Part shown: one piece after another, positions 5,685-23,557 of the stretch
Layout: every line of letters begins with the position of its first letter
Numbering within the stretch: the first letter of the stretch is position 1
Position numbers and translations under genes: made by a program
Source of the DNA: Pseudomonadota bacterium
Lineage (GTDB): Bacteria; Myxococcota; JACRCW01; JAFGSX01
DNA length: 64,000 nt
Reading direction: 5' to 3'
NCBI GenBank assembly: GCA_043821645.1
Contig: JBDRCO010000003.1
Span: forward strand, 1-64,000
Notes under the pieces: generated by a model
Told to the model about the DNA's origin: nothing
What the model saw: only the letters and a program-made list of their open reading frames with translations
The model's database searches: none

Positions 5685-7703
5685 TCAGGGTTCGAAGCGC
5701 ATCACGCTGAGGCCTGTGACCGTGCTCGTGGGCCTGTCCTTCATGAGCACATAGATCGAGTCGCTGCCCCCCGCGACCAGGATCGGGAACGATCTGATCG
5801 ACCCACCACGGCTGGTCGCGATCGTGACGTGGTGCCAGCTATCCACGTCGTCCGGCGCATCACCAGCGGCGATCATGTGGAGCGCGTAGGACTCCAGGCC
5901 GGTGCTCAGCAGCACCAGATCGCCTCTGGCGGTCACCGTGCCGTCGATGATCTGGTAGCTCGCCGCGCCAACCTGGCCCGTGATGTCCAGGCAGTCCGTG
6001 GCGCCGTCGTGGTCGGCGTCGTCGCACCACATCGCGTTCACCGATCCCGTGCCGTAGGCGATACCTCCTATGCCCCAGGGCAGGATGCCACGCCACTCGG
6101 CGTCCGCGGTCACCGTGCTCACCTCTCGTTCCGGCAGCCTGTCCTGATTCGCGTCGTCGTGCAGCCGCTTGTACATCGTCGCCACGGTACGTTTTCGGGC
6201 CAGGAGCATGCCCGCGTAGTAGCGCGTGGGAATACAGGGGGCGGGCGCACACTGGCTGTAGGAATAAGGCAGCACCGCCGTCATCGCGGCCTGGGTTTGC
6301 GTCAGGGTGTCGTGGGCGGTGTTGAGTCCAACCGTGCACGAGTCCGCGAACTGTACGGAGTTGAAGCATCGCGACAGGCGCCCTGTGGTGGGCGTGGTGG
6401 CGTCCTGACCGGCCAACCAGTAGTTCGAGCCGGTGTAGAACTGTCCCTCGGTGAGGGTCTGGATCGATGCGATGGAGCTGAGTTCGGCACTGGCGACCAC
6501 GGAGTTGATCCAGTTGCCGGTGGACCAGTCGACGGTCCCGGTCGAGGTATCGATCACGCCGAGAACAGGTCCCGCTGAGGCGGTCGCCGCGGCGAGTCCT
6601 CCGCCCATCGTGGTCCCCTCGCCGATCTGGACCGGCCCCCAGCGAGTGGTGTCGCTGGCACCGACCTCGAACACGCCGGTGACGTCGAGGGCCAGGCAGG
6701 TGACCCTCCCCGACGACGCATCCTGGTGCCAGTTGGCCAGGGCCAGGTACTTGCCGCTGCGATTCTCGAAGTCGGCGGCCGGGGGGTCCACGGACCAGGC
6801 GTCGCAGCCACAGTCCCCGCAGTCCAGGTCAAGGGTGCTACTGGTCTTGCCCACGCACGTGCCAGCCAGGCAGAAGTTGGGCAGGGAGACCGCGCCCCCC
6901 AGATCACAGGTCTCGAAGTCCGGTCCGGTGGAATAGCGGCAGTCCAGGGTGGCGTGGCAGGTGCCTCCGGTCTTGCACTGCGGGGCGGGCTGGCAGTTGG
7001 CGTCGTTGGCGGTGAACTGACAGCCCAGCACTGCGTCACAGGTGTCATCGGTGCAGTCAACGCCGTCGCTGCACTGGCTGTGAATCGGCGTGAACTGGCA
7101 GTCGAGGGTGGAGTGGCAGGTGTCTGCCGTGCAATCGACGTCGTCATTGCAGTTGGCGTTGTTGGGAGTGAACACGCAGCCCGTCGCCGTGCACACATCA
7201 TCGGTGCAGTCGACGCTGTCATCGCAGGCCGTGTTGCTGGTGGCGAACACGCAGTGGCCGTCTTCACAATAGTCGAGCGTGCAGGCCACGTTGTCATTGC
7301 ACTCGTTGCCGGTCGGGGTGCACTCGGGCGCCGCACTGTCGGCAACCGCTGTGTCGGGGACGGTGGCGTCCGCAACGAACGCGTCCGTGGCGATGATGTC
7401 CGTGGCTCCGAGGTCACTGGCCGCGACCTGGTCCGCGGTCTGGAGATCTGTGGCCGCAGCATCGAGGGGAGCGTTCTGGTCCGCGCTGGCTGCGTCCTGC
7501 ATCGCGGCAGTGTCGGTCGTCGCGATGTCCGTGCCCGTCACGTCCGCAGCCAGGGCGTCCAGCGAGCTGGCATCGCCGGTGATGGTCGAGCGGTCGCGGC
7601 CACTGCTCCCTCCGTCGTCACCCGCGGGCTCGGGGCCACACTGGCAGGCACCGACGCAGCACAGCAGGGTGACGAAGCTGATTCTCAGCGGGCGGGTACG
7701 CAT
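5685..7703 (-). CDS. Cys-rich exported/lipoprotein with CDDxxxCTxDxC repeats
   Basis: Signal ending VGACQCG, Asp/Ala/Thr-rich linker, four repeats (CNDNVACTLDYC, CDDSVDCTDDVC, CNDDVDCTADTC, CSDGVDCTDDTC), beta-rich C-terminus. ATG 7703 preferred. Confidence 0.75.
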   Translation of the reverse strand: MRTRPLRISFVTLLCCVGACQCGPEPAGDDGGSSGRDRSTITGDASSLDALAADVTGTDIATTDTAAMQDAASADQNAPLDAAATDLQTADQVAASDLGATDIIATDAFVADATVPDTAVADSAAPECTPTGNECNDNVACTLDYCEDGHCVFATSNTACDDSVDCTDDVCTATGCVFTPNNANCNDDVDCTADTCHSTLDCQFTPIHSQCSDGVDCTDDTCDAVLGCQFTANDANCQPAPQCKTGGTCHATLDCRYSTGPDFETCDLGGAVSLPNFCLAGTCVGKTSSTLDLDCGDCGCDAWSVDPPAADFENRSGKYLALANWHQDASSGRVTCLALDVTGVFEVGASDTTRWGPVQIGEGTTMGGGLAAATASAGPVLGVIDTSTGTVDWSTGNWINSVVASAELSSIASIQTLTEGQFYTGSNYWLAGQDATTPTTGRLSRCFNSVQFADSCTVGLNTAHDTLTQTQAAMTAVLPYSYSQCAPAPCIPTRYYAGMLLARKRTVATMYKRLHDDANQDRLPEREVSTVTADAEWRGILPWGIGGIAYGTGSVNAMWCDDADHDGATDCLDITGQVGAASYQIIDGTVTARGDLVLLSTGLESYALHMIAAGDAPDDVDSWHHVTIATSRGGSIRSFPILVAGGSDSIYVLMKDRPTSTVTGLSVMRFEP

Positions 7704-7818
7704 GATTTCCCCCGAACGAAGTCGGAATGGTTGAAGAACAGGTGGTGAGAACCTTACCACTCCGGGTGTCTTGATTCCCGCGAAAACGCAGCGCAGCGCG
7801 GGTTGCAGGTGGCCTCGG

Positions 7819-8364
7819 TCAGTCCACCAGCAAGAAGGCGTAGCGGTTCATCTCGTCGCTGGTGGTGCGCAGCACTTCGATGGGCAGGCCCGCCCGCCGC
7901 GCGGTGCCAAACACGTCGATGGCCATGGCCTCCGGGCTGGGCCTCATGCGCTGGGGATCCGTGCAGCCCCCGCGGCGCGGAGCGCAGTCCTGGCACAGGT
8001 TGCAGCTGTCCAGGAACAGCAGGAAGGCTTTGGGAAACCCTGCCAGGAACACGTCGCGCTCGAGAGCCAGCAGCCCGGTGTTGACCTCGCGAGTCCAGGC
8101 GTGGCGGTCTCGTGGATGGTCGACCTTTCGTGCGAAGTGCAGGATCAGCGCGTTGCTGTAATCGTCCAGAAAGGCGCGGCACTCGGCCACCGACGGGGTA
8201 CTGGGCGGGCAGCAGGCCCGGTGTCCGTATTCCGGACAGCCATACATGCATTTCATGCGCACCCACTGCGCCGTGGTGATGTCCGATGGGTGTAGCCAGC
8301 GATGGTCGGGGACTGCGTGCTGCGCCAGCAACTGATCCATCGCTTCCTGGTCGATGCTGGCCAC
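7819..8364 (-). CDS. DUF2284-like predicted metal-binding protein
   Basis: WVRMKCMYGCPEYG..CCPP, CNLCQDC, RPSPEAMAIDVF; GTG at 8364 after GGGAGG. Confidence 0.85.
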   Translation of the reverse strand: MASIDQEAMDQLLAQHAVPDHRWLHPSDITTAQWVRMKCMYGCPEYGHRACCPPSTPSVAECRAFLDDYSNALILHFARKVDHPRDRHAWTREVNTGLLALERDVFLAGFPKAFLLFLDSCNLCQDCAPRRGGCTDPQRMRPSPEAMAIDVFGTARRAGLPIEVLRTTSDEMNRYAFLLVD

Positions 8365-8548
8365 GGGACCTCCCTGCACATGATCGCACAACAAGACTAT
8401 CAGGCCACCAACCGAGTGGTCTTTGCGCACACACAGGGGACAGGCCTTGATCGTGATCCTGCCGGGATTGTCAGAGAGGTCAGGTTTTGTCCACAGACCC
8501 GTGTTGGCTCGCTATATTGGCCACTCCACGCGACCTGGAGGAGAGCGG

Positions 8549-8863
8549 ATGCAGGACGCTGACCGCCTGGTGCAGCAGCGCGATCTCGTGACCCGGCACA
8601 TCGAGCAGGAGACCGTGCTGGTGCCGGTGTGCGCTGGCGTTGCCGACCTCGAGGCCATCTACACCCTCAACGCAGTGGGCACCGTGGTGTGGGAGTGCCT
8701 CGATGGCTCGCGCACTGTGTCGCAGATCGTCGACGAGGTGGTCGCACGCTTCGAGGTGGAAGCCGCGCTCGCTCGGCAGGATGTCGAGGCCTTCCTCGAC
8801 GACATGCTGCGCGAAGGCCTGGCTTGTGAACGGGGGGCTGTGGGGCGCGATGGACCTGCTTGA
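8549..8863 (+). CDS. PqqD-family RiPP recognition element (RRE)
   Basis: ETVLVPV..IYTLNAVGTVVWECLDGSRTVSQIV..FEV..ARQDVEAFL; GGAGGA SD then ATG 8549. Confidence 0.92.
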   Translation: MQDADRLVQQRDLVTRHIEQETVLVPVCAGVADLEAIYTLNAVGTVVWECLDGSRTVSQIVDEVVARFEVEAALARQDVEAFLDDMLREGLACERGAVGRDGPA

Positions 8864-10001
8864 CTACGGCGCGTTCGGGGCGCGCATGCGCGCGTTACTC
8901 AACACGAAACGCATCCCACTCGGTGGCACCTTCGAGGTCACCGGGCGCTGCCCGCTGCGCTGCGGCCACTGCTACAACCGCGAGCCCCTGACCGCGCGCG
9001 AGCGCGACGAGCCCAGCCTGTCCCTGGCCCAGCAGTGCCGCATCGTCGACGAGCTGGTCGACGCGGGTTGCCTGTGGCTGCTGTTCACGGGTGGCGAGAT
9101 CTTCTCCCGGCCCGACTTCATGGACTTCTACCTGCATGCGCGTCGTCGTGGACTGCTCATCACTCTGTTTACCAGCGGGGTGCTGATCACCGATGAGATC
9201 GCTGACACGCTCGTTCGGCATCGACCCCTGCGTATCGAGATCACGCTGAGCGGTTCGAACCCCGAGGTTCACGAGAAAGTCACGGGCGTGGCGGGATCCT
9301 TCGAGCGATGCCTGCGCGGCATCCACCTGCTCAAGGCGCGTGATCTCCCCCTGGTTCTGAAGACGACCGTGACCCGGGACAACGTCGAGGACCTGCCTGC
9401 GATACAGGTGCTGGCCGAGCAGACCCTGGGCCTGCCGCACCGCTTCGATGCCATGCTGAATGGACGCCTCGACGTCGCGGGCGCGCCGCTGGAGCTGCGC
9501 CTGCGCGAGGACGAGGTAGTGGCGCTCGACGTCGGAGACGAGCGCCGCCGGGGCGAGTGGGTGGACTTCGCAGCTCGCTACCTTGGTGCCGAACATGCGG
9601 GGACTTCGAGTGGGACCTTGTACGGCTGCGGCGCCGGCGTGCACAGCTTCGCCATCGACCCCTGGGGAGGGCTCAAGCTCTGCACCCTGTCCCGGCAGGC
9701 CTGCTACGACCTGCACCAGGGCTCCTTTGCCGATGGCTGGAAGGCCCTGGTGAACCTGCGCCAGCAGCCCGCTGTCGAGGGTGCGATGTGCACGGCTTGT
9801 TCGCTACGCTCCATGTGCGAGAGCTGCCCGGCGGTGGCCGAGCTCGAGCACGGCGAGGCCCGCGTTCGTTCCGAGTTTCACTGCAGCGTCGCGCACGGGC
9901 GGGCGCGAGGGCTCGACCTGGCGGTCGAGGGTCACGGTCCCTGTTCTCATTGCCCACCCGACGATGGTGGCGTTCGAAAGTCCAGGAGTGCGGTCGCATG
10001 A
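8850..10001 (+). CDS. Radical SAM/SPASM peptide maturase
   Basis: CPLRCGHCY, FTGGE, and SPASM motifs CGAG..IDPWG..LC, CTACSLRSMCESCP..FHC; ATG 8850 overlaps the pqqD stop. Confidence 0.93.
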   Translation: MDLLDYGAFGARMRALLNTKRIPLGGTFEVTGRCPLRCGHCYNREPLTARERDEPSLSLAQQCRIVDELVDAGCLWLLFTGGEIFSRPDFMDFYLHARRRGLLITLFTSGVLITDEIADTLVRHRPLRIEITLSGSNPEVHEKVTGVAGSFERCLRGIHLLKARDLPLVLKTTVTRDNVEDLPAIQVLAEQTLGLPHRFDAMLNGRLDVAGAPLELRLREDEVVALDVGDERRRGEWVDFAARYLGAEHAGTSSGTLYGCGAGVHSFAIDPWGGLKLCTLSRQACYDLHQGSFADGWKALVNLRQQPAVEGAMCTACSLRSMCESCPAVAELEHGEARVRSEFHCSVAHGRARGLDLAVEGHGPCSHCPPDDGGVRKSRSAVA

Positions 10002-10183
10002 CGAGCAAGCACGACGGCTCGAAACAGCCGGAGCCGCGTCTCCCTTACGAGGCGCCACGCCTGAGCAAGGTGAAGCTGAGGCCCGAAGAGGCCGTGCTCG
10101 GCGGGTGCAAGACCGCGTCGGCGGCCGGGCCAGCTCAGCCCACCTGCGCGTTCCCTGATGCCTGCATCACGTCGGGATCCTGA
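9998..10183 (+). CDS. Putative RiPP precursor peptide (61 aa)
   Basis: MTSKHDGSKQPEPRLPYEAPRLSKVKLRPEEAVLGGCKTASAAGPAQPTCAFPDACITSGS; AGGAG SD at 9984-9988; ATGA overlap with the rSAM stop and TGATG overlap with the next gene; YxxPxL leader motif. Confidence 0.85.
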   Translation: MTSKHDGSKQPEPRLPYEAPRLSKVKLRPEEAVLGGCKTASAAGPAQPTCAFPDACITSGS

Positions 10184-11115
10184 TGCAGAGGGGGCAGCAA
10201 CTCATGGCATTCCGAGGGGACCTAGCCTGCTCGGGACTGAACATCGGCGGACTTCAGGTCGCGATTCACCACGATCCCTCCTGCGGCATCGATTTTGGCG
10301 GTGCTGCCCGCGCCTTCGCGCCCTCGGACGCGCCACCGGACCTCGATGTTGACCTGCAGCTGACCGATGTTGTGGATGAACCGCAGGGCGTCGTGCGCTT
10401 TGACTCGGGCGCGACCTGGAGGCTGCTCGAGGACGACGGTGAGCGGGTCATCCGGCTTGGCCTGCCCGGGGATGCAGGGCTCCCGCACGCGGTTCTGAGG
10501 CTGGATCAAGGTCGCCGCACGGGCACCCTGCAGGTGGCTCGCTCCAGGATCGGCCTCAACGGCGCACTCCGGGTCCTCGAGTACCCGCTGGATGAGCTGC
10601 TGTGGGTCCTACTGCTGGCTCGCCACCAGGGTCTGCTGCTGCACGCGCTCGGCGGCGTGGATGCCCGGGGGCAAGGCTTTGTCTGCGCGGGTGTGTCCGG
10701 CGCTGGAAAGTCCACCCTGGCCCGTCTGTGGAATCCCCAGCACCCTGCGACCGTGCTCAGCGATGACCGGGTGATCGTGCGGCTCGTCGACGGAAGACCG
10801 TGGATTCACGGCACGCCCTGGCACGGCGAGGATGAACTGGCCAGTGCGCAGTCGGCACCTCTGGCGCGCGTGTATTTCATCGAGCAGGCGGACCGCGATG
10901 AGCTGGTCGAGCTGTCCGCGGCCCAGGCCATGGCGCGCTTGCTGGCCCTGAGCTTCTTGCCCTTCTTCAGCGCCGAGGATCTGGGGGCCTGTGCGGACCT
11001 GGCGGCCGTGGTGGCCCGCCAGCGGAGGTGCCAGGTGCTTCGCTTCACGCCCTCGGCGAGCGCGTGGCAGCTGGTCGACGACGATCTGGGGCGGGTATCG
11101 GGTAGCCAGGCATGA
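10183..11115 (+). CDS. HPr-kinase-like P-loop kinase (lasso-kinase/ScmC-like)
   Basis: LLLHA, GVSGAGKST, LSDDRVIVR, HGTPWHG: a His-Lys-Asp-Asp arrangement. Confidence 0.8.
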   Translation: MQRGQQLMAFRGDLACSGLNIGGLQVAIHHDPSCGIDFGGAARAFAPSDAPPDLDVDLQLTDVVDEPQGVVRFDSGATWRLLEDDGERVIRLGLPGDAGLPHAVLRLDQGRRTGTLQVARSRIGLNGALRVLEYPLDELLWVLLLARHQGLLLHALGGVDARGQGFVCAGVSGAGKSTLARLWNPQHPATVLSDDRVIVRLVDGRPWIHGTPWHGEDELASAQSAPLARVYFIEQADRDELVELSAAQAMARLLALSFLPFFSAEDLGACADLAAVVARQRRCQVLRFTPSASAWQLVDDDLGRVSGSQA

Positions 11116-11666
11116 CGCTGCGCCGTGATACGCCCCTGTTCGTGGCCGTGGTGCAGCAGGTTCTGGCGCGCGGGGACAGGGTGCGCTTCGTGGCCGAGGG
11201 CCGCAGCATGCGCCCGGCCATCCTCGGCGGCGACCTGGTCGAGGTGGGCCCTTGTCCCGACGCGGTCCCCCGCATCGGCTCCATCGTCCTGGCCAGGGTA
11301 GCGACCCGCGTGTTCCTGCACCGCGTCGTCGACGTCGTCCACACCGGCGCAGGTGCCGGCGTGGTGCTGCGTGGTGATGCCAGCAGCGCCCAGGACCCTC
11401 AGCTCGACCACTCGCAGGTCCTGGCCGTGTTGAGCCGCATCGTTCGCCGGAACCTCCCGGATTCGCTCCGCCAGGTGGCACGCCAGGGGCTGCAGCGGAC
11501 TCCGCGCTGGCTGACCGGGCCTCTGCGCGCGGGTCTGGGGGGCGTTCGCGCCGCTCTGGCCAGCCGCGCCTCCCGGCCCAAAATGTATGGCTGGCGGCTA
11601 CATAAAGATGATCCAGCCCGCCAGGAATCCCATTCTGGCGAGCGTCAGCGACCGGGGGCCATGTAA
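11112..11666 (+). CDS. S24/S26 signal-peptidase-like protein
   Basis: GRSMRPAILGGD (Ser), FLHRV (His), LRGD; no clear transmembrane anchor. Confidence 0.8.
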   Translation: MTLRRDTPLFVAVVQQVLARGDRVRFVAEGRSMRPAILGGDLVEVGPCPDAVPRIGSIVLARVATRVFLHRVVDVVHTGAGAGVVLRGDASSAQDPQLDHSQVLAVLSRIVRRNLPDSLRQVARQGLQRTPRWLTGPLRAGLGGVRAALASRASRPKMYGWRLHKDDPARQESHSGERQRPGAM

Positions 11667-14600
11667 TGAGTGTGCTTGCGAGTGTGGTTTCAGCCCTGAC
11701 CCTGGTTGCTCCGACAACGCCTCCGCCCACCATGGAGCTGCCTGCACAAGCTCTGGAGCAGATACACCAGCTTGAACTCGAGAAGGCCTCGCGAACCCAG
11801 GCTCAGCGCAAGATGTCCTCGCACCTGGTGCACGAGGCCAAGCGGCAGCGGGGACAGTCCTTGGGCCTCGGACTCGAAACCCTGCGAGGCGGTGTCACGC
11901 TGGATACTCGTGGCCAGGTGACCGTCGACCTCGACGCCGAAATCACTCCCGAGCTACTGGCCGCCGTGCAACGTGAGGGTGGGCAGGTTCTAGGCTCATA
12001 CCCGCAGTTTCGGTCCGCTCGCGTGAAATTGCCCTTGCAGTCGGTCGAGCTCATTGCGGACTTGGTCGAGGTCGTTGGCGTGCACGAGGCGCTTCCACCC
12101 ATGCTCAACAAGGACAACACCTCAGAGGGCGACGCTGCCCATCGCGCAGACCTGGCGCGCGCAGGCTGGTCCGTCAACGGCAGCGGTGTCGCGGTGGGGG
12201 TACTGTCAGATTCGGTCGACTATCTCTCCACAGTCCAAACCAGCGGAGACCTGCCGGCCACGGTGACGGTGCTCAGCGGCCAGAGCGGTGTCCCCGGTAG
12301 TGGCGAGGGCACGGCGATGCTCGAGATCGTCTACGACCTCGCGCCTGGTGCGTCACTCTACTTCGCCACCGCATTCAACGGCGATGCCTCATTTGCCCAG
12401 AACATCCTGGATCTGCGCGCGGCCGGCTGCGACATTATCATCGACGACGTCAGTTACTTCGCCGAACCGGTGTTTCAGGACGGGATCATCGCCCAGGCCG
12501 TGGACCAGGTGGTGGCAGACGGTGCGCTGTACTTCTCGTCCGCCGGCAACTCCGGCAACCTGAATGACGGCGAGTCGGGTGTGTGGGAGGGCGATTTTGT
12601 GCCGTTTGTGCTCGGTGACGGCACGATCACCCACGACTTTGGGGGCGGCAGCAACGGCGATGTTCTCACAGTTCTTCCTTCTTCCGTCGTCACCCTGCAG
12701 TGGTCAGACCCCTGGGGCGCCTCAGCCAACGACTACGACATTTACCTCATCAATCGTAACACCGGCGCCGTTCGCTCCTCGTCGACCGGTACGCAGGATG
12801 GCAATGACAACCCATACGAGCAGCTCGCACGAACCAGTCAATGGCGAGCCGGAGACTACCTGGTCATCGTCAAGTACTCGGGAGCGGATCGCTTTCTGCA
12901 TCTGAGCACGCACCGAGGTCGACTTGGCGTGGGCACATCAGGGCAGACCAGCGGCCACAGCTCAGCAGCCGGTGCCTTCAGCGTGGCGGCCGTCGACGCT
13001 GCCGAGGCGGATCCTTCGACGGGTGCCTTCTTCGATGCCAGCCCAGCGCCTCCGGTGGAGTACTTCAGCTCAGATGGCCTGCGCCGCATCTTCTTTGACG
13101 CTGCGGGAAATGCGCTCACGCCTGGCAATTTTTCGTCGACAGGCGGCGTGGTCAGACAGAAACCTGACCTCGCTGCAGCCGACGGAGTGGCCTGCGCGAC
13201 CACAGGCTTCGACCCCTTCTACGGCACCTCCGCCGCCGCGCCTCACGCAGGCGCCGTCGCGGCACTGCTTTGGTCCCTGTTTCCCACCGCCAGCAACGAG
13301 GAGATCAGGGCGCGCTTGCTGGCCTCGGCCATCGACATCGAGGCGCCCGGCATCGATCGCGACTCCGGTGTCGGCATCGTCGACGCCTACAGTGCCCTGC
13401 TCACCGAAGTCGAACTCATCTCCTTCGACGCCCGGCAGGTCGGACCGCGCGTGGCCCTGACCTGGCGCACCGGGCGCGAGGTGGACAACCTGGGATTTCA
13501 CGTCTACCGCGAGGACGCCACCGGCCTGGTTCAGCTCACACCCTGGCTGGTCGCGGGCTCTGCCCTGTGGAGCAGCGCTGGCCCAGCCTTCGCGACCGGT
13601 CGCGGCTATCGCTGGTGGGATGAACCCGACAGCACGAACGCACACGTGCGCTACTGGCTCGAGGACATCGCCCTGGATGGCCAGCGCACCTGGCACGGCC
13701 CGGTGGCACTGTCCGCAGGTGACAACGACGAGGAGCTGGGCGAGGACTCGGCCACGCTTGGCGAGGTCGATCAGCGTTCCCGCCAGGCGCAGGCGCGGCA
13801 GGCGCGCGCGACCTCGGTTCGTGGGGCCTTGCGTGACAGTGGTCGAAGCCACAGGGGCAGTTCCGGGAAGGGCCGGACGCAGGTTCACGCCCGGGGTCCG
13901 AATCACCAGGGCGACGACGATCTGCTCCTCTCACCATGGCCCGGCGCGAGCCAGCCCTCGGTCCGCATCGTGACCGAATCGGCCGGCTGGTACGAGGTCA
14001 GCGGCGCCCAGCTCCTGGCCGCGGGGCTGGACCCCACCGTCGATCCGCGGCGGCTGCAGCTCTTCACCGAGGGCCAGCAGCAGGCCATCGAGATCCGCAA
14101 CCTCGTCGGCGGACACCTGCAGCCCTCGTCCCGCATTGGATTTTACGCACGTGCCCTCGACACCCCGTGGGCGGGTCAGCGCACGTCGTTTCTCGTCGAG
14201 GGATCGGATCCTGGCCTCCGCGTCCGTGATCCGCGCGGCTCCGGCAACGGTGGCCGCCAGGCGAGCAGCGTGCCCTTCACGGTGAAGCAGAGCGACAAGC
14301 AGATCTACTTCTCGGCCTTGCTCAACGGCGACGCCGACAACTTCTTCGGTGCGCCGGTGACAGCAAGTGGTGTTGACCAGGTGATCGCCCTGCCAGCGGT
14401 GGACCCGGCCTTCACCGGCACCGCGCACCTGCAGGTGGTCGTGCAGGGTGTCACCGAGCAGGCGCACCGCATCCCGCTGCTGCTCAATGAACAGGCCCTG
14501 GGTGAGATCGTATTCGCAGGACGTGCGCTGGCCACCTACGAGGTCGAGCTACCCCAGAGCTGGCTGCTCGACGGCGACAACCTGCTGCACCTGAGTTCCA

Positions 14601-15970
14601 GCGCCGGGGACTCGGACATCAGCCTGGTGGCGAGCATCCGCGTCGACTACCAGCGCCTGTTGCGCGCCGATTCCAGTGAACTCACCTTCTTCGTCGACGG
14701 GGCGCGTCAGGCGCGGCTCGCAGGCTTCGGAGCCGCAAGCGTCCGCGTGCTCGATCTCGACGACGACGGCGCGATCCAGGAGCTCACGGTCACAACCGTG
14801 GGCGGTTCCAGCGGGGAGCTGCTGGCTCGAGTACCGGACAACCAACAGCACCAGATCTACGCCTTCGCGGCATCCGCTGTGCGCGCGCCTGTCTCCGTGC
14901 TGCCAGGCCAACCCTCGTCGTGGAACGCCCTGGATCCGGGCGCGGACATGGTGGTGATCGCCCACGCCAGCCTGCTCGACGCCATGCAGCCCCTGGTCGA
15001 CCTGCGCGAGTGGCAGGGCCTGTCCGTGGCCCTCATCGACGTGCAGGACCTGTACGACGAGTTCAATTTCGGTCACAAGAGCCCGCAGGCCATCCGCGAC
15101 TTTTTGGCACACGCCACGCGGACCTGGCAGATTCCTCCACGCTTCGCCCTGATGGTGGGCGATGCCAGCTTCGATCCCCGCGACCACCTGGGCTTCGGCG
15201 ATCGCGACCTGCTGCCTACCAAGCTCGTCGACACCCGGCAGCTCGAGACCGCAAGCGATACCTGGTTCGTCGACCTCGACGGCAGCGGCATCCCCGCCCT
15301 GGCCATTGGCCGGCTCCCCGCTCGCAATGCCACCGAGGCCACGCTGCTGGTCGACAAGCTCCTGCAGCACGCGTCCACTGCGGGAGCCGACTGGGCGCGG
15401 CAAGCGCTGCTGGTTGCCGACGTCGACCCGCGGCACGACTTTGCAGCAGGCGCTGCCCGCGTTGCCACCGAGCTCAATGCAGGCTTCGACGTGCAGCAGC
15501 TGGTGCTCGATCCGGCAGATCCGGTGCCCGTGCGCGGCCAGTTGCTGAGCGCCCTCAACCAGGGCGCAGGCCTGGTCGACTACCTCGGCCATGGTTCGGT
15601 CGAGATCTGGTCCCGCACCTCGCTGTTCACCAGCCAGGACGCGCGGGCCCTGAGCAACGGCGAGCGACAGCCCGTGCTGCTCACCATGACCTGCTTCAAT
15701 GGCTTCTTCCACGACCTGTACACCGAGAGCCTGGGCGAGGCGCTGCTGCGGGCCCCAGACGGTGGTGCCGTGGCCGTCTGGGCCTCGTCCGGACTGACCG
15801 AGCCGGTGGCGCAGCAGGTCGTGAATCGCGAGCTGGCCGCGCTGCTGGCGACCCAGCCTGAGATGACCCTGGGTGAGGCCGTGATGCTGTCGACGTCACT
15901 GGTGGGTGATCCCGACGTGAGGCACACCTTCAACCTGCTTGGCGATCCCAGCATGCGCGTCGTCGAGTGA
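11666..15970 (+). CDS. Secreted S8 subtilase + C25 (gingipain-like) fusion protein, 1434 aa
   Basis: Signal-like N-terminus and propeptide; VLSDS, EGTAM, SAGN, FYGTSAAAPH (subtilase); VELISFDA..LTWRTGREVDNLGF Ig-like linker; C25 motifs LYDEFNFG, MVGDASFD, AIGRLP, YLGHGS, MTCFNG, NLLGDP. Confidence 0.88.
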   Translation: MSVLASVVSALTLVAPTTPPPTMELPAQALEQIHQLELEKASRTQAQRKMSSHLVHEAKRQRGQSLGLGLETLRGGVTLDTRGQVTVDLDAEITPELLAAVQREGGQVLGSYPQFRSARVKLPLQSVELIADLVEVVGVHEALPPMLNKDNTSEGDAAHRADLARAGWSVNGSGVAVGVLSDSVDYLSTVQTSGDLPATVTVLSGQSGVPGSGEGTAMLEIVYDLAPGASLYFATAFNGDASFAQNILDLRAAGCDIIIDDVSYFAEPVFQDGIIAQAVDQVVADGALYFSSAGNSGNLNDGESGVWEGDFVPFVLGDGTITHDFGGGSNGDVLTVLPSSVVTLQWSDPWGASANDYDIYLINRNTGAVRSSSTGTQDGNDNPYEQLARTSQWRAGDYLVIVKYSGADRFLHLSTHRGRLGVGTSGQTSGHSSAAGAFSVAAVDAAEADPSTGAFFDASPAPPVEYFSSDGLRRIFFDAAGNALTPGNFSSTGGVVRQKPDLAAADGVACATTGFDPFYGTSAAAPHAGAVAALLWSLFPTASNEEIRARLLASAIDIEAPGIDRDSGVGIVDAYSALLTEVELISFDARQVGPRVALTWRTGREVDNLGFHVYREDATGLVQLTPWLVAGSALWSSAGPAFATGRGYRWWDEPDSTNAHVRYWLEDIALDGQRTWHGPVALSAGDNDEELGEDSATLGEVDQRSRQAQARQARATSVRGALRDSGRSHRGSSGKGRTQVHARGPNHQGDDDLLLSPWPGASQPSVRIVTESAGWYEVSGAQLLAAGLDPTVDPRRLQLFTEGQQQAIEIRNLVGGHLQPSSRIGFYARALDTPWAGQRTSFLVEGSDPGLRVRDPRGSGNGGRQASSVPFTVKQSDKQIYFSALLNGDADNFFGAPVTASGVDQVIALPAVDPAFTGTAHLQVVVQGVTEQAHRIPLLLNEQALGEIVFAGRALATYEVELPQSWLLDGDNLLHLSSSAGDSDISLVASIRVDYQRLLRADSSELTFFVDGARQARLAGFGAASVRVLDLDDDGAIQELTVTTVGGSSGELLARVPDNQQHQIYAFAASAVRAPVSVLPGQPSSWNALDPGADMVVIAHASLLDAMQPLVDLREWQGLSVALIDVQDLYDEFNFGHKSPQAIRDFLAHATRTWQIPPRFALMVGDASFDPRDHLGFGDRDLLPTKLVDTRQLETASDTWFVDLDGSGIPALAIGRLPARNATEATLLVDKLLQHASTAGADWARQALLVADVDPRHDFAAGAARVATELNAGFDVQQLVLDPADPVPVRGQLLSALNQGAGLVDYLGHGSVEIWSRTSLFTSQDARALSNGERQPVLLTMTCFNGFFHDLYTESLGEALLRAPDGGAVAVWASSGLTEPVAQQVVNRELAALLATQPEMTLGEAVMLSTSLVGDPDVRHTFNLLGDPSMRVVE

Positions 15971-16009: not shown

Positions 16010-17203
16010 TCAGAACGCGATGTGCACGTGGTCGCGGTGGCCGCCGATGGCGCCGATGTCTCGGCCGTACTTCACGCCACCGAGCGGGTCGTAGAACATC
16101 TCGGTCGGGTTCATCGAGCGCATCTCGCGATAGAACGCTGCCATCTGACTGGGCGAGCCTGCCACGTCCACCGCGCGGCCACTGTAGTGGTAGGAACCTG
16201 GCGCGTGGGTGCCGCCCGTGGTCGAGGTGATGCGCAGACCCATCTGCACGGCCCGGCGCTTGGCGTAATCGAGCTTGGCCGCGTTGCTGGCGCCCGCGCC
16301 CGGCACTCCCGTGGGACCGGTGGTGCCGCCCACCGAACCACTGACATGGATGCCCAGCTTGTTCCAGGTCTGTGGTCCCACCACACCGTCGGCGGAGATG
16401 CCGCGCGAGCGCTGGAAGGCCACCACCGCGGCGCGCGTGTTGGGGCCGAAGTCGCCATCGACGCCGCCCGGGTTGAATCCCAGGTCCTTGAGCCGCTGCT
16501 GCAGCTTGCGCACGGGCTCGCCGCGCGCGCCCTGGCGCATCACCGGGCCCGAGCCGCCGGTGCTGGTGCTGCCCGAGGTGCCGCTGCTGCCGCTTGTGCC
16601 GTTGAGCTTGCCCCAGGTCTGCGGGCCGACCACGCCGTCTGCGCTGATGCCGCGCGAGCGCTGGAAGGCGAGCACCGCAGCGCGGGTGCGAGGACCGAAG
16701 TCACCGTCGACGGCGCCGGGGTTGAAGCCGGCGTTCTTGAGCTTCTGCTGCAGGGTCTTGACCGCGGCACCCTTGGCACCCTGGCGCAGCGTCGGCTGCG
16801 ATGCAGTGGACGCCTGGGTCGAGGCCACGGCGGGGGCAGCAGACTCGATCCGCGAGCGGATGGTGTCCGAGCTCAGACCACCGTTGCTTCCCACGGGCAC
16901 GCGCTCGCCGCTGCTCACCGCCGGTCTCGCGTCGTCACGCAAGGTCGGGTTCTGGCCACCCTCGACCAGCTCCAGGCGCGGCTGCGCGGCGCTGCGTGCA
17001 GGCACCTCGAGGACCTGTCCGGCGACGATGCGATTGGGATCGCGAAGCTGCGGGTTGGCCGCCATCATCTCGCCCACGCTCACGCCATGCTGCCGGGCGA
17101 TCGCGCTCAGGGTCTCGCCTCGCTGCACCCTGTGCTCCTGGCCTGTGCTGGCGCGGACGGGGCTGGTGCTGGTTCGAACGGCGGTGGCATGGAGTGGTGG
17201 CAT
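16010..17203 (-). CDS. LysM + two PG-binding domains + putative Zn-peptidase (M15-like) C-terminus
   Basis: HRVQRGETLSAIA..DPNRIVAGQVL (LysM); two copies of LQQxL..GFNPGxVDGDFGPxTRAAVxAFQRSRGISADGVVGPQTW; SYHYSGRAVD..HRDHVHIAF; GGAGGG SD. Confidence 0.85.
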   Translation of the reverse strand: MPPLHATAVRTSTSPVRASTGQEHRVQRGETLSAIARQHGVSVGEMMAANPQLRDPNRIVAGQVLEVPARSAAQPRLELVEGGQNPTLRDDARPAVSSGERVPVGSNGGLSSDTIRSRIESAAPAVASTQASTASQPTLRQGAKGAAVKTLQQKLKNAGFNPGAVDGDFGPRTRAAVLAFQRSRGISADGVVGPQTWGKLNGTSGSSGTSGSTSTGGSGPVMRQGARGEPVRKLQQRLKDLGFNPGGVDGDFGPNTRAAVVAFQRSRGISADGVVGPQTWNKLGIHVSGSVGGTTGPTGVPGAGASNAAKLDYAKRRAVQMGLRITSTTGGTHAPGSYHYSGRAVDVAGSPSQMAAFYREMRSMNPTEMFYDPLGGVKYGRDIGAIGGHRDHVHIAF

Positions 17204-17426
17204 GAACAGCCCTCCGGGGTGCGGTGATGTCGTACCCGGGTATCGGGTCCCGTGCGCACAAGGTGCGACAAGCCCCATCGGTCGATAGGCTGATGCGAAA
17301 AATACAAATAATACAGATGTGTTAGCAGCCTTGCATCGAGCCTGTGCCGGCTGCAAGCGACATCAAGTGTGATCGATCGCACGCTGTGACGACCGCGATT
17401 CCGCGCGCCGCCCGTTTGCTCTTTGC

Positions 17427-17472: not shown

Positions 17473-18516
17473 TCAGGGCCCATCCGTCGGCGGCCGAAAC
17501 CGCACCTGGTCGACGAGGCCAGGCGACAGCTGCACCCGGTTCTGGTCATCGACCACGATGGCCTCGATGCCACTGAGGCGCCCGACCAGCTCGAGGCCAG
17601 CCTCTGGCCCCAGCACAAACACCGCATGGGCCAGGGCCGAAGCCAGCTCGGCGTTGCTGGCCACCACCGTGGCGCTCCGGGTGGAGCGTGCAGGCACGCC
17701 GCTGCGGGGATCGATCACACCGTGAAAGCGCACGCCGGCGCGGAAGAAGAAGCGCTCGTAGTCCGAGGCTGTGGCCACGGCGCCGTCGCTGGCGGAGAAG
17801 GCGGCGAAGTAGCCAGCGGCGCGCGGATCCTGCACCCCGACCATCCACGGCTGCTCCGCCTTCTGTCCGCGCACCACCAGGTCGCCTCCGCTGCGCAGCA
17901 CGAAGCTGTCGAGGCCGGCGTCGAGCAGAGCCTGGGTCGCGCGCTCGAGGGCTGCCCCGCGACGCAGCGAGCCAAGTCCTATCCGCTTGCCCGGGGCGAG
18001 GGTCGCGATGTGCTGCACGGCGTCGAGCTTGAGAGCGCGGTAGTCCACCTGGTCGAGGGCCGTCTTGACGGCCACGGGATCCGGCACCAGCCCGCCGCTC
18101 CCGAAACCCCACAGCTCGACCACGGACGCCGCCGTCGGGTCGTAGGCGCCACTGGACAGGCGAGCCACGCGCAAGGCCTCGGCCAGGCTGTCGAACACGT
18201 CAGGGGACAGCACCACGGGCTTGCCGTCCGAGTGCGACAGGCGATACAGCTCGCTCCCCGCGCTGTTCTCGTCGAGGCGTTGCAGGGTGCGGGTCATGGC
18301 CTCCCGCGCCCTCTGGGCCGCGGTCACCGCCTGGTCACGGTTACTGGTGAACACCAAAAGCTCGGCGTCGAGCCCGGCACTGCTCCAGTAGAAATGCTCG
18401 ACCCGAGCCACGACCTCGGTGGTCGCGTCCTCGGCACCTCCATCGATGGCAGGAGTGGCGGGTCCCGAGGCAGTGGCGAGCAGGAGGCCGAAGCCCAGCA
18501 CAGCAGACGTGTTCAT
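17473..18516 (-). CDS. apbE: FAD:protein FMN transferase (ApbE family)
   Basis: SELYRLS, SSGAYDPT, GGDL, WMVGVQDPR, AVATASDYERFF, HGVIDPRSG. Several motifs are divergent. Confidence 0.88.
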   Translation of the reverse strand: MNTSAVLGFGLLLATASGPATPAIDGGAEDATTEVVARVEHFYWSSAGLDAELLVFTSNRDQAVTAAQRAREAMTRTLQRLDENSAGSELYRLSHSDGKPVVLSPDVFDSLAEALRVARLSSGAYDPTAASVVELWGFGSGGLVPDPVAVKTALDQVDYRALKLDAVQHIATLAPGKRIGLGSLRRGAALERATQALLDAGLDSFVLRSGGDLVVRGQKAEQPWMVGVQDPRAAGYFAAFSASDGAVATASDYERFFFRAGVRFHGVIDPRSGVPARSTRSATVVASNAELASALAHAVFVLGPEAGLELVGRLSGIEAIVVDDQNRVQLSPGLVDQVRFRPPTDGP

Positions 18517-18717
18517 GGTTCCGCTGCGTAGCACGGGCCCGAGGTCGACGACAAGCGCGACTCTGTCCCCGTCTCTCGCGGGGGTGCGCTGCGATTGCCC
18601 GGCCTGCGGGTGCGTGCTAGCGTCCAGGCGCTTCGTTCGACGACACGCGTCCGACCACACCGAGCCGAAGACCGTGCCGCGCGCGGTCCGAGCGGCCCAA
18701 CCGGAGGGAGCCATCCC

Positions 18718-20775
<2,058 letters not shown>

Positions 20776-20826
20776 GGCCCGAACCGAGCACGACGTCGCT
20801 GTTGCCGGCGTCGACGAGGCACATTC

Positions 20827-21933
20827 ATGGCCCAGCGTATTGACGCCGACCACGCCCGCTTCAAGGACATCGTGCGCGGGCGCATCAAGCAGAACCTCAA
20901 GAAGTACATCCAGAAGGGTGAACTGATCGGCCGTCGCGGCAAGGACACCATCACCATCCCGGTGCCGCACATCGACATCCCCAACTTCCGCTTCGGTGAG
21001 CGCCAGAAGGGCGGGGTGGGGCAGGGCGAGGGCGAGGAGGGGCAGGCCCTCTCCCCCGAGGATGGCGACGAGCAGGGCCAGGGCAAGGCCGGCGATCAGG
21101 AAGGCAAGCACATCCTCGAGACCGAGGTCACCCTCGACGAGCTCGCCGACATGCTGGGCGAGGAACTCGAGCTGCCTCGCATCGAGCCCCGCGGCCACAA
21201 GCTGGTGTCGGATCGCATCCGCTACATCGGCGTTTCCCCGACCGGTCCCGAGTCGCTTCGCCACTTCAAGCGAACCTACAAGCAAGCCCTGCGGCGCAGC
21301 ATCGCCAGCGGGATCTACGACCCCAAGCGGCCCATCGTGGTGCCGGTGCGCGAGGACAAGCGCTATCGCACCTGGAAGCAGGAGCAGCACCCCGAGTCCA
21401 ACGCGGTCATCGTGTACATGATGGACGTGTCCGGTTCGATGGGGGAGGAGCAAAAGGAGATCGTGCGCATCGAGAGCTTCTGGATCGATACCTGGCTCCG
21501 GCGCAACTACAAGGGCATCGAGAATCGCTACATCATCCACGACGCCACGGCCCGCGAGGTCGACCGCGAGACCTTCTTTCACACGCGAGAATCGGGTGGC
21601 ACCATGATCTCCAGCGCCTACAAGCTGTGCGCGGACATCATCGCGTCCGAGTACCCGTCGAGCGAGTGGAACATCTATCCTTTCCACTTCTCCGATGGCG
21701 ACAACTGGAGCGCCGACGACACGCGGCAGTGCCTGGAGCTGATGCGGGATCAGCTGCTGCCGGTGAGCAACCAGTTCTCCTACGGCCAGGTCGAGAGCCC
21801 GTATGGCTCGGGGCAGTTCATCAAGGACCTGCGCGAGGCCTTTCACGAAACCGAGAGTGTGGTGCTGTCCGAGATCAAGGACAAGGAAGGCATCTACGGC
21901 TCGATCAAGGACTTCCTGAGCCACGGGAAGTAG
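20827..21933 (+). CDS. yeaH: YeaH/YhbH (DUF444) vWA protein
   Basis: [34 protein letters not shown]. Confidence 0.95.
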
Positions 21934-21946
21934 CGAGGCATCCCAG

Positions 21947-23557
21947 GTGCAACCAAGCCGACGCCATCTCTCGCGCGAGCTCAGCGATCTGCAGCAGGAG
22001 ATCGTGGGCTACGCCCGCGAGTTCAAGCTCGATTTCTTCGACGTCATGTTCGAGGTGCTCGACTACGAGGAGATCAACATGGTCGCCTCGTACGGAGGCT
22101 TTCCGGTGCGCTACCCGCACTGGAAGTGGGGCATGGAGTACGAGCGCATGCAGAAGTCGTACACCTACGGCCTGCACCGCATCTACGAGATGGTCATCAA
22201 CAACGACCCCTGCTACGCCTACCTGCTCGAGTCCAACACCTTCGTCGACCAGAAGATCGTGATGGCGCACGTCTACGCGCACTGCGACTTCTTCAAGAAT
22301 AACTTCACCTTTGCCCACACCAATCGCAAGATGATGGACGAGATGGCCAACCATGCCACCCGCATCCGTCGCTACATCGACCGGCTGGGTGTGGAGCGCG
22401 TCGAGGCTTTCATCGACTGCTGCCTGTCCCTCGACAATCTCATCGACTACTACTCGCCCTACATTGCCCGCAAAGCAGCGCCGACACCCTCCGGAGAACG
22501 GCGGCGCACCCGAGAGCAGGAGCTGGCCGAGCAGGACAAGGAGCGGGTCCTCGAACTGGCGCACAACGACAGGGATGGTGAGAGCGACTCCTCGAACAGC
22601 GCCTACGATGGCGTGCGCGGCGAGGTGCACCGGCTGCCCACGCACCGCGAGTACATGGAGTCCTACATCAACCCGCCGGCCTACATCGAGGAGCAGCGCC
22701 AGCGGGCGCGCGAGAAGGCCAAGGAACGCCGCAAGACGCCTCCCGAGCCCGAGCGCGACGTCATGGGCTTCTTGCTCGAGCACGCGCCGCTGCAGCGCTG
22801 GCAGCACGACATCCTGGGCATGCTGCGCGAGGAGGCCTACTACTTTGCACCCCAGGGCATGACCAAGATCATGAACGAGGGCTGGGCCAGCTACTGGCAC
22901 TCCAAGATCATGACCGAGCGCGCCCTGGGCCCGTCCGAGTTCATCGACTTCGCGGATCACCACTCGGGCGTGGTGGCCACCAGCGGCATGAGGCTCAATC
23001 CCTACAAGCTGGGCATCGAGCTGTACCGCGACATCGAGGACCGCTGGAACCGCGGCCGCTTCGGCAAGGAGTACGATGACTGCGAGGACCTCGCCGAGCG
23101 CCGGCGCTGGGACACCGGTGCGGGACTCGGCCGCGAGAAGATCTTCCAGGTGCGCAAGATCTACAACGACATCACCTTCATCGACGAGTTCTTGACCCTG
23201 GATTTCTGCCGCGAGCACAAGCTGTTCTCGTTTGGTTACAACCCCAAGCACAACCGCTGGGAGATCGAGAGCCGCAAGTTCGAGGCGATCAAGACGCAGC
23301 TGCTCAACTCGCTGACCAACCTCGGGCAACCCTACATTGCCGTCGAGGACGCCAACTTCGAGAACCGCGCCGAGCTGCTGCTCTTGCACCGCCACGAGGG
23401 CGCTGACCTCGATCCCAACTACGCCACCGAGACCCTGAAGAACCTGCTCACGCTGTGGAGCCGACCGGTCAACATCCGCACCCTGGTCGAGGGCAAGCCC
23501 GTGCTGCTGCGCTTTGATGGCAAGGAATATTCGGAGAAGCCGCTCGAGACAGAGTGA
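21947..23557 (+). CDS. spoVR: SpoVR/YcgB family protein
   Basis: [51 protein letters not shown]. Confidence 0.95.

Follow-up and report, generated by a model that had tools for sequence, protein, structure and literature searches.

Why one polypeptide should carry two proteases, and why its gene should close an operon that also encodes a small peptide, is the question raised by a locus in the first 64,000 nucleotides of contig JBDRCO010000003.1 (assembly GCA_043821645.1, deposited as a Pseudomonadota bacterium and assigned by GTDB to the Myxococcota). This whole stretch is referred to below as the window. The gene at 11666-15970 (+) is a single open reading frame (ORF) of 1434 residues in which a subtilisin-like unit of peptidase family S8 is followed by a unit of family C25, placing two protease units in one polypeptide. 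The reading developed here, to which we give about an even chance of being correct as a whole, is that of a two-unit protein in which a rewired, active S8 protease is joined to a PorU-like C25 unit acting on or with the peptide of its own operon. What is new is the Glu/Ser rewiring of the S8 family and the fusion of that family to the C25 unit.

Layout of the fusion protein and active site of its S8 unit

The initial annotation had described 11666..15970 as a dual-protease fusion joined at about nucleotide 13400, and both statements proved correct. A single ORF matches both the S8 and the C25 profiles, and the fusion is a real double protease. Pfam places Peptidase_C25 (PF01364) at residues 1095-1432 (262.6 bits, profile positions 1-374 of 374) and Peptidase_S8 (PF00082) at residues 368-570 (52.1 bits against a cut-off of 21.8), the latter covering profile positions 112-288 only. 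Each half is found separately in other proteins, and these homologue matches set the module boundary at residue 579/580, which is nucleotide 13403. In the S8 half the motifs LSDS, GEGT, SAGNSG and GTSAAAP lie at residues 180, 213 (Glu214), 292 and 520 (Ser522), and in the C-terminal half VELISF, GHG and TCFNG lie at residues 582, 1308 (His1309) and 1342 (Cys1343). The protein is divided as follows:

11666..11734, + strand: residues 1-23, hydrophobic N-terminus with no Lys or Arg
11735..12106, + strand: residues 24-147, conserved N-terminal region with a pro-domain-like beta-alpha-beta unit, kept across the family
12107..13402, + strand: residues 148-579, Glu-type S8-like catalytic domain (Ser181, Asp182, Glu214, Asp260/261, Asn295, Ser522)
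12581..12907, + strand: residues 306-414, beta-sandwich insertion within the catalytic domain
13403..13735, + strand: residues 580-690, first domain of the conserved C-terminal unit (putative Ig-like)
13736..13990, + strand: residues 691-775, low-complexity linker rich in Arg, Gln, Ser and Gly, poorly conserved in the alignment of C-terminal units
13991..14947, + strand: residues 776-1094, PorU-N-terminal-like and middle domains, with a profile match to PorU (6za2) residues 17-63
14948..15970, + strand: residues 1095-1434 and stop codon, C25 catalytic domain (His1309, Cys1343), at which the protein terminates

The family of the S8 unit is very large. Hundreds of proteins with unrelated C-terminal domains match residues 24-578 at 50-58% identity, and in an all-against-library search 4064 cluster representatives matched at E ≤ 1e-30. 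When conservation was counted in 232 members, Ser181, Glu214, Gly215, Asp260 and Ser522 were invariant (232/232), and Asn295 (230/232) and His431 (229/232) were nearly so. Asp261, which pairs with Asp260 at the end of a neighbouring stretch, is also nearly invariant, and Asp182 is Asp in 216 members, Asn in 13 and Gly in 3. The change from His to Glu is not special to this fusion but a family-wide rewiring of the catalytic site; Glu214 occurs in every member counted and is a family trait, not decay of this gene.

The profile of the Glu-type family alone, compared with solved structures and one classical S8 protein of the genome, aligned only in the Ser region. The bridge to classical subtilases was a His-bearing sister family of 120 sequences, gathered from relatives of L111, a 660-residue paralogue in the same genome (C33, ORF 388-2370) that aligns across the whole catalytic domain and carries the classical Asp/His/Asn/Ser motifs together with the same beta-sandwich insertion. 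The family was compared column by column with His-bearing relatives in two independent alignments, one with HMMER (120 sister rows) and one with MAFFT (A4; 58 classical and 11 Glu-family rows). The A4 profile spans the whole domain of Tk-SP (3afg) and of subtilisin BPN', and its columns 181 and 214 fall on their Asp and His motifs (IIDTG and HGTH in Tk-SP). At the positions of interest the alignments read:

Column 181: HMMER, Asp in 107 of 107 aligned; A4, Asp in 58/58 classical and Ser in 11/11 Glu-family rows
Column 214: HMMER, His in 110 and Glu in 9 of 120; A4, His in 58/58 classical and Glu in 11/11 Glu-family rows
Column 261: HMMER, Ser in 115 of 120; A4, Ser in 58/58 classical and Asp in 11/11 Glu-family rows
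Column 295: HMMER, Asn in 119 of 120; A4, Asn in 58/58 classical and 11/11 Glu-family rows
Column 522: HMMER, Ser in 120 of 120; A4, Ser in 58/58 classical and 11/11 Glu-family rows

Both alignments place Ser181 in the canonical Asp column, so the Asp of LSDS (Asp182), which the initial annotation had read as the catalytic Asp, probably lies one column later. The other motifs it had listed, namely EGT in place of HGT, the Ser of GTSAAAP and the His and Cys of the C25 domain, are present as described. The unit thus keeps the nucleophile Ser522 and the oxyanion Asn295, aligned with those of solved subtilases, and has Glu214 in place of the catalytic His (HGT) and Ser181 in place of the canonical Asp (D-T/S-G). 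Natural intermediates that combine the canonical Asp with Glu for His make up 8 of the 120 sister-family members. The acid partner of Glu214 would be Asp261, Asp260 or Asp182, and we read the unit as a protease of Ser/Glu/Asp type that is active and not dead. If the rewired site is active, it would be a third catalytic solution in the subtilisin fold, beside Ser-His-Asp and the sedolisin triad, in a family of thousands of members that are annotated at present merely as 'S8 family serine peptidase'.

An AlphaFold2 model of the S8 unit (predicted local distance difference test score 78.3, predicted template modeling score 0.84) contains the pro-domain-like unit at residues 84-147 (strand 84-91, helix 95-103, strand 107-123, helix 124-131, strand 136-141), a subtilisin core and an all-beta insertion at 306-414. 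All 50 matches listed by Foldseek against the PDB were subtilases, each with probability 1.00, and the predicted alpha/beta fold is that of subtilisin, as expected of an S8 member. The best matches were the clostridial Csp subtilases, Tk-SP and subtilisins, the top ones with template modeling scores of about 0.5; these are subtilases that bear pro-domains. Like the Csp-type proteins (CspB, CspC, CspA) and Tk-SP, the unit has a subtilisin fold, has kept a pro-domain-like part and carries an additional beta-sandwich; the insertion at 306-414 can be aligned with 3afg residues 435-518, which form the C-terminal beta-domain of Tk-SP.

Subtilases in general resemble the unit in the GTSxAxPH Ser motif and the oxyanion Asn. 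The unit differs from them in having Glu for His, Ser for the canonical Asp and the Asp pair 260/261, and is only 11-17% identical to solved structures. Sedolisins (S53) have the same clan fold and would share Glu214, in the His column, as presumed general base. In sedolisins the triad Asp lies four residues past the Glu, and an Asp occupies the oxyanion position. The residue four past Glu214 is Met218 (Met in 105/111) and the oxyanion column holds Asn295, which rules out membership in the sedolisins; no S53 entry appeared among the listed sequence or fold matches of the unit (50 Foldseek matches listed). Two triads are described for subtilisin-like proteins in the relevant part of PMC11593635, which names Glu as the base in the related Ser-Glu-Asp serine-carboxyl proteinases.

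The PorU-like C-unit and its front ends

Residues 580-1434 (855 residues) match as one block proteins with differing front ends, and form an autonomous PorU-like C25 unit, hereafter the C-unit. When one genome of each species was scanned, at least 416 relatives could be confirmed among 613 matched stretches; among the matches listed most are from Blastocatellia, with others from elsewhere in the Acidobacteriota and from Armatimonadota, Nitrospirota and Myxococcota, and it is common for one genome to have several of them and for these to lie in tandem. All 92 aligned copies retain His1309 and Cys1343, and the C25 domain has both the full profile match and the His/Cys dyad of its family. Conservation extends well outside the catalytic domain: W600, E605, L609, G610, Y614 and R615 of the first domain are kept in at least 90 of the 92 copies. 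No Pfam match was found for residues 580-690 even at E = 1, residues 580-1095 matched neither Pfam nor NCBIfam, and in the ESM Atlas residues 580-1094 matched only unnamed or C25 clusters, with scores ≤ 0.85.

The best solved relative of the C-unit is PorU (6za2, E = 4.3e-36), with gingipain R next (4e-24). PorU, a member of peptidase family C25, is the sortase of type IX secretion in Porphyromonas gingivalis. An N-terminal stretch of PorU (17-63) and its catalytic domain (374-785) align with residues 776-1434, including the GHG and TC motifs, and the catalytic domain aligns with gingipain R as well. The NCBIfam PorU model (NF033707) scores 188.3 bits against a cut-off of 420, with model positions 160-731 covering residues 892-1431, and a PorU2-related model scores 170.4 bits against 450. 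The fusion protein ends after the C25 domain, whereas PorU goes on for about 370 residues (the alignment ends at 785 of 1156), and it has a large front end, an extra domain and a linker, together with a sub-cut-off NF033707 score. In addition, the C-unit has its relatives among the Acidobacteriota, Myxococcota, Armatimonadota and Nitrospirota and not among the Bacteroidota. In the genome of the window (94.7% complete) the type IX secretion protein SprA gave at best 18.6 bits against 200 and the model of the type IX C-terminal domain gave no match, and the same models were silent in all 14 control genomes. PorU cleaves C-terminal domains and attaches anionic lipopolysaccharide in a sortase-like manner, according to the relevant part of PMC5445135.

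The S8 unit is one of many interchangeable front ends of the C-unit. Front-end length in 91 C-unit ORFs ranges from 25 to 2948 residues (median 756), and only 3 of the 91 have almost none (<100 residues). Pfam was run on 70 of the 91. The matches comprised S8, LamG, DUF2341, FG-GAP, DUF7948/SBBP, sortilin/BNR, GSDH, cohesin, PATR, fn3, EEP, LTD, CarboxypepD_reg, DUF11, BACON, PPC, GDSL lipase and Ig domains, and about 30 of the 70 gave no Pfam match. The suggestion made at the outset that the N-terminal domain is exchangeable on a conserved C25 module is supported by the many unrelated front ends and by the occurrence of Glu-type S8 units on the C-unit at three or more separate places, in the C-unit tree and in the S8 tree alike.

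In a FastTree phylogeny of C-units (92 rows), the window protein groups with L003 and L006 (starred branch, 99), and a starred set of 15 rows contains eight of the nine rows linked to a peptide cassette of the kind described below. Glu-type S8 units occur on C-units at two further places in this tree, L012 and L054. In the S8 tree (236 rows), the members fused to C25 need at least 3 changes, all forced by starred branches; the window protein, L003 and L006 are mutually nearest, and the starred set (98) contains only the window protein, P0002 and L003. The window protein, L003 and L006 share the fusion at only 44-66% identity, so the joining of S8 to C25 is old.

Two further arrangements of C25 genes were seen. 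In L019, L056, L010, L039 and other loci of Blastocatellia genomes, up to four C25-unit genes with differing front ends lie in tandem arrays. The genome of the window itself has a second, more distant C25 gene, L002 (C87:186601-187911; 32% identical in its catalytic part and encoded by an ORF of roughly 1050 residues), which lies some 1.6 kb from a classical S8 gene, L107 (C87:189531-190331; PF00082, 194 bits), making a pair of S8 and C25 in separate genes.

The peptide operon and its association with C25 units

The fusion gene is the last of six in an operon in which every start overlaps the previous stop, an arrangement of translational coupling. Upstream of it lie:

8490..8518, + strand: promoter-like site (consensus match only, 9/12; 1 site against 0.3 expected in shuffled sequence)
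8549..8863, + strand: PqqD-family peptide chaperone, a recognition element (RRE) for peptides made on the ribosome and modified after translation (RiPPs); Pfam PF05402, 64.8 bits, with NCBIfam PqqD-type matches below cut-offs; start taken as the first ATG ahead of the domain
8850..10001, + strand: radical S-adenosylmethionine (radical SAM)/SPASM maturase; Pfam Radical_SAM, 75.2 bits, with NCBIfam radical SAM/SPASM families below cut-offs
9998..10183, + strand: precursor peptide of 61 residues; its ATG overlaps the maturase stop and its stop overlaps the kinase ATG
10183..11115, + strand: HprK-related kinase-like protein, kept in cassettes; NCBIfam HprK_rel_B at 30.4 bits against 200 and ScmC at 28.2 against 125, both below cut-off, and Pfam AAA_33
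11112..11666, + strand: S24/S26 (SpI/LppS-like) peptidase; TIGR02228 at 25.9 bits against 51.85 and Peptidase_S24, both below cut-off

The stop of the S24/S26 peptidase gene and the ATG of the fusion gene have one base in common. Orthologues of the maturase are found in related cassettes at E = 1e-85 to 1e-162, and homologues of the precursor occupy the same place in them. In 15 aligned precursors Y17, P20, C37, G44, C50, C56 and the C-terminal Ser are invariant, and the Lys after the first Cys is nearly so; the precursor gave no Pfam or NCBIfam match. Its gene, joined to its neighbours by ATGA and TGATG overlaps, is readily missed by gene callers.

The cassette resembles the linear polyphosphorylated peptide (LPP) clusters of Bacillota (LppA, B, K, S), as far as the main text of PMC13381572 describes them. 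Those clusters have a YxxP-type leader motif, a discrete PqqD-type RRE, an HprK-like kinase and a soluble leader peptidase of SpI/SipW-like type with Ser/His/Asp that depends on the RRE, the last two being represented here by sub-cut-off matches. The combination of a Y/WxxP leader with a discrete RRE is present in the operon (Y17 and P20 in 15/15 precursors; PF05402 at 64.8 bits). LppS itself is a SpI-like leader peptidase with S29, H68 and D93 that cleaves the leader only with the RRE, in the experiments reported in the main text of Popov et al. 2026 (PMC13381572); in the S24/S26 protein of the window, Ser32, His70 and Asp89/95 were read by eye as the corresponding residues. The cassette differs from the LPP clusters in its radical SAM/SPASM enzyme, a three-Cys core ending in Ser and the linked C25 protein, and the main text of PMC13381572 has no mention of radical SAM, SPASM, C25, gingipain or subtilisin. 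In addition, the window operon (8549-15970) has neither a PF14907 gene nor a transporter gene, where an LPP-type cluster would have a PF14907 nucleotidyltransferase and an MsbA-like transporter but no radical SAM enzyme. A weaker resemblance is to the SynChlorMet (SCM) system, since the kinase-like protein, PqqD and maturase give best or near-best NCBIfam matches to ScmC, ScmD and ScmE; the scores are, however, far below cut-off (28 against 125, 41.5 against 100 and 102 against 400). Literature searches, whose coverage did not extend to subscription journals, returned no paper on the Glu-type S8 family, on the C-unit family or on the pairing of this cassette with C25.

How closely the cassette and the C25 unit are linked depends on the side from which the question is asked. 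When loci were collected by their C25 units, a maturase homologue was found in the flanks of 8 of 76 (L006, L011, L020, L022, L034, L035, L050 and the variant L060). Maturase-seeded searches of five C25-rich genomes gave matches at E ≤ 1e-10 in three genomes, at four places, and the three strongest of these each adjoin a C25 unit (a full cassette at L083, variants at L084 and L085). In a sample of 401 genomes of the phylum, ten genomes carry the maturase at E ≤ 1e-60; a C25 unit is present at five of their ten places (L100-L103, L106), and at two others the contig is too short (L097, L099). Over all 13 maturase-seeded places a C25 unit was found in eight and none in three, with two contigs too short. 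By genome, a C-unit (E ≤ 1e-30) is present in 10/10 cassette genomes of the phylum sample against 30/391 others (40/401 overall). The proposed tie of such C25 proteins to PqqD and radical SAM genes is real but one-sided: cassette genomes have C-units (10/10 against 30/391), whereas only 8 of 76 C25 loci have the maturase in their flanks. Cassettes nearly always come with C25 and C25 units mostly come without a cassette, a pattern suggesting that it is the protease unit that is served by the peptide, and not the other way round. In L006, L034 and L050 the C25 protein carries the S24/S26 domain as an in-frame N-terminal fusion, and the L006 protein (P0003) unites S24, Glu-type S8 and C25 in one polypeptide.

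PF14907 nucleotidyltransferase genes lie beside the related cassettes L020, L022, L083 and L100, and those of L020 and L083 are within loci for polysaccharide biosynthesis and export (Poly_export/SLBB, Wzz/GNVR kinase, Wzy_C, Bac_transf, GT4). These neighbours fit surface attachment without proving it. The variant cassettes L084 and L085, from Blastocatellia-type genomes, have two radical SAM genes, S24, HprK-like and PqqD genes and a convergent C25 unit; L060 resembles them and has a nucleotidyltransferase-like ORF of 400 residues.

Possible functions of the two-unit protein

If the whole reading is right, residues 24-579 would form a pro-domain-bearing protease of subtilisin fold that works by Ser/Glu/Asp catalysis and rides on the C25 unit as a passenger. 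The operon would make a leader-guided peptide, probably cross-linked through Cys and phosphorylated at its C-terminal Ser: the PqqD RRE, the radical SAM/SPASM enzyme and the HprK-like kinase would modify it, and the LppS-like peptidase would remove the leader. The PorU-like C25 unit would then act, as endopeptidase or transpeptidase, on or with the peptide after leader removal. The analysis establishes the architecture, the conservation and the genomic linkage, whereas the activity of either protease, cleavage or ligation by C25, the chemistry of the peptide and the action on or with the modified peptide are what we infer. Through such a tie to a radical SAM/kinase peptide pathway a modified peptide would be coupled to protein processing, a link that, to our knowledge, known RiPP pathways do not make. 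The window offers a compact six-gene operon with every part intact, suited to testing. A complex prediction for residues 769-1434 with the 61-residue precursor scored 0.02 against a mark of 0.32, with no controls, and is not evidence either way.

Several observations weigh against this reading. Most C25 units have no cassette nearby, and of the five C25-rich genomes two gave no maturase match and one only a weak one (9.6e-16), which implies that the basic role of the unit is independent of the cassette. Three cassettes (L098, L104, L105) have no C25 unit in the stretch fetched, and the count of 10/10 overstates the link, the genomes being related and not independent. The S24/S26 protein already covers leader removal, which leaves no obligatory step for C25. 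Compartment is a further difficulty. By eye, without a predictor, S8-family members and many C-unit proteins have signal-peptide-like N-termini; the window protein begins with a hydrophobic stretch of 23 residues free of Lys and Arg, its nearest relative has no such stretch and other relatives have an S24 domain there instead. The window protein and its nearest relatives thus have no convincing signal peptide, whereas other cassette-linked C25 proteins have one. As regards the S8 unit, Asp182 is replaced by Asn or Gly in 16 of 232 members, and the Clostridioides difficile pseudoproteases CspC and CspA are among its best fold matches, making a binding-only role possible.

The alternative that retains most weight, though we consider it unlikely, is an ordinary secreted multidomain protease, with C25 as the payload, front ends for targeting or adhesion, and late, LanP-like trimming of an exported peptide, involving neither transpeptidation nor anchoring. 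The front ends are mostly binding-type domains, many C-unit proteins start in a signal-peptide-like manner, the C-terminal part of PorU is missing, and EpiP, a lantibiotic leader-processing subtilase, stands at rank 36 of the S8 fold matches. However, at 855 residues the conserved unit far exceeds a catalytic domain in size, and it invariably occupies the very end of the protein. Enzymes (S8, GDSL lipase, EEP, GSDH) make up several of the front ends, and the sequence is nearer to PorU than to gingipains. The fusion of a leader peptidase to C25 likewise points to a coupling tighter than late trimming.

A pseudoprotease, catalytically dead and acting in binding or as a scaffold, is in our view a rather unlikely reading of the Glu-type S8 unit. 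In its favour are the replacement of both the canonical His and the canonical Asp, the top fold matches to CspA and CspC and a Pfam S8 match confined to the C-terminal part of the profile. Against this, all or nearly all of 232 members keep Ser522, Asn295, Glu214 and Ser181, which is the pattern of an active site and not of decay, intermediates with Asp and Glu exist among the classical relatives, and the related serine-carboxyl proteinases with a Ser-Glu-Asp triad use Glu as base (PMC11593635).

The reading of a rewired protease joined to a PorU-like unit can also be carried further, to a joint proposal, improbable as a whole, in which the S8 unit has a third catalytic arrangement and the C-unit is a cis-acting sortase. 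In a Ser/Glu triad of this kind, which thousands of secreted proteases may use, the acid would have shifted to Asp260/261 on the neighbouring strand, with Ser181 left in its old place at the end of the first. The 855-residue unit, complete in itself and carried by every cargo protein in phyla that may lack type IX secretion, would cleave the linker and attach the freed front end to an acceptor. In copies linked to a cassette the acceptor may be the peptide itself, cross-linked by the radical SAM enzyme and phosphorylated on Ser, with the Lys after the first Cys as nucleophile and the modified C-terminal Ser as the handle to surface polysaccharide. Action of the PorU-like unit in cis on exchangeable front ends, if real, would make it a device for sorting proteins or attaching them to the surface outside the Bacteroidota.

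The modified peptide might instead be a regulator of the C25 protease (an inhibitor, an activator or a trans-acting pro-peptide) and not its substrate. The one-sided dependence, in which cassettes are almost always accompanied by C25 and C25 mostly lacks a cassette, would agree with this, as would a small conserved core with three invariant Cys. The C25 units that have no cassette evidently need no such regulator, however, and we hold this explanation to be quite improbable.

The composition of the fusion gene bears on the history of the join. The initial annotation had noted by eye more A/T-ending codons in the S8 half, and the G+C content at third codon positions (GC3) on either side of the boundary bore this out for the window gene:

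Window gene: S8 half 0.746 (579 codons), C25 half 0.842 (855 codons), chi-square p = 1e-5
L003, the nearest relative: S8 half 0.798, C25 half 0.931, p = 7.5e-14
L006: S8 half 0.840, C25 half 0.856, p = 0.45

The step is real but poor evidence of exchange, since the fusion predates the split from relatives only 44-64% identical and L006 has no step; in our reading it reflects a local difference in composition and does not point to a recent capture. That the S8 half was recently captured, horizontally, by a resident C25 gene is very improbable: the steps in the window gene and L003 would agree with it, but the three proteins form one C-unit clade and are nearest to each other in the S8 tree at only 44-66% identity, L006 is even in composition, and GC3 is 0.80-0.82 in the operon genes and up to 0.93 in other genes of the window.

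The operon is flanked by genes of other kinds. Divergent from it, at 7819-8430 (-), is a gene for a DUF2284 metal-binding protein (161 bits), and the gap of 118 bp to the PqqD gene contains the promoter-like site. Beyond this, at 5685-7760 (-), is a 691-residue ORF (GC3 0.84) with an N-terminal hydrophobic segment and many repeated motifs rich in Cys and Asp, which matched neither Pfam nor NCBIfam. On the other side, a gene at 16010-17356 (-) for a LysM and peptidoglycan-binding protein is convergent on the fusion gene, and it is followed by ApbE at 17473-18714 (-) and then, at 18595-23557 (+), by a set running from PrkA to SpoVR, with very high GC3 (0.91-0.93).

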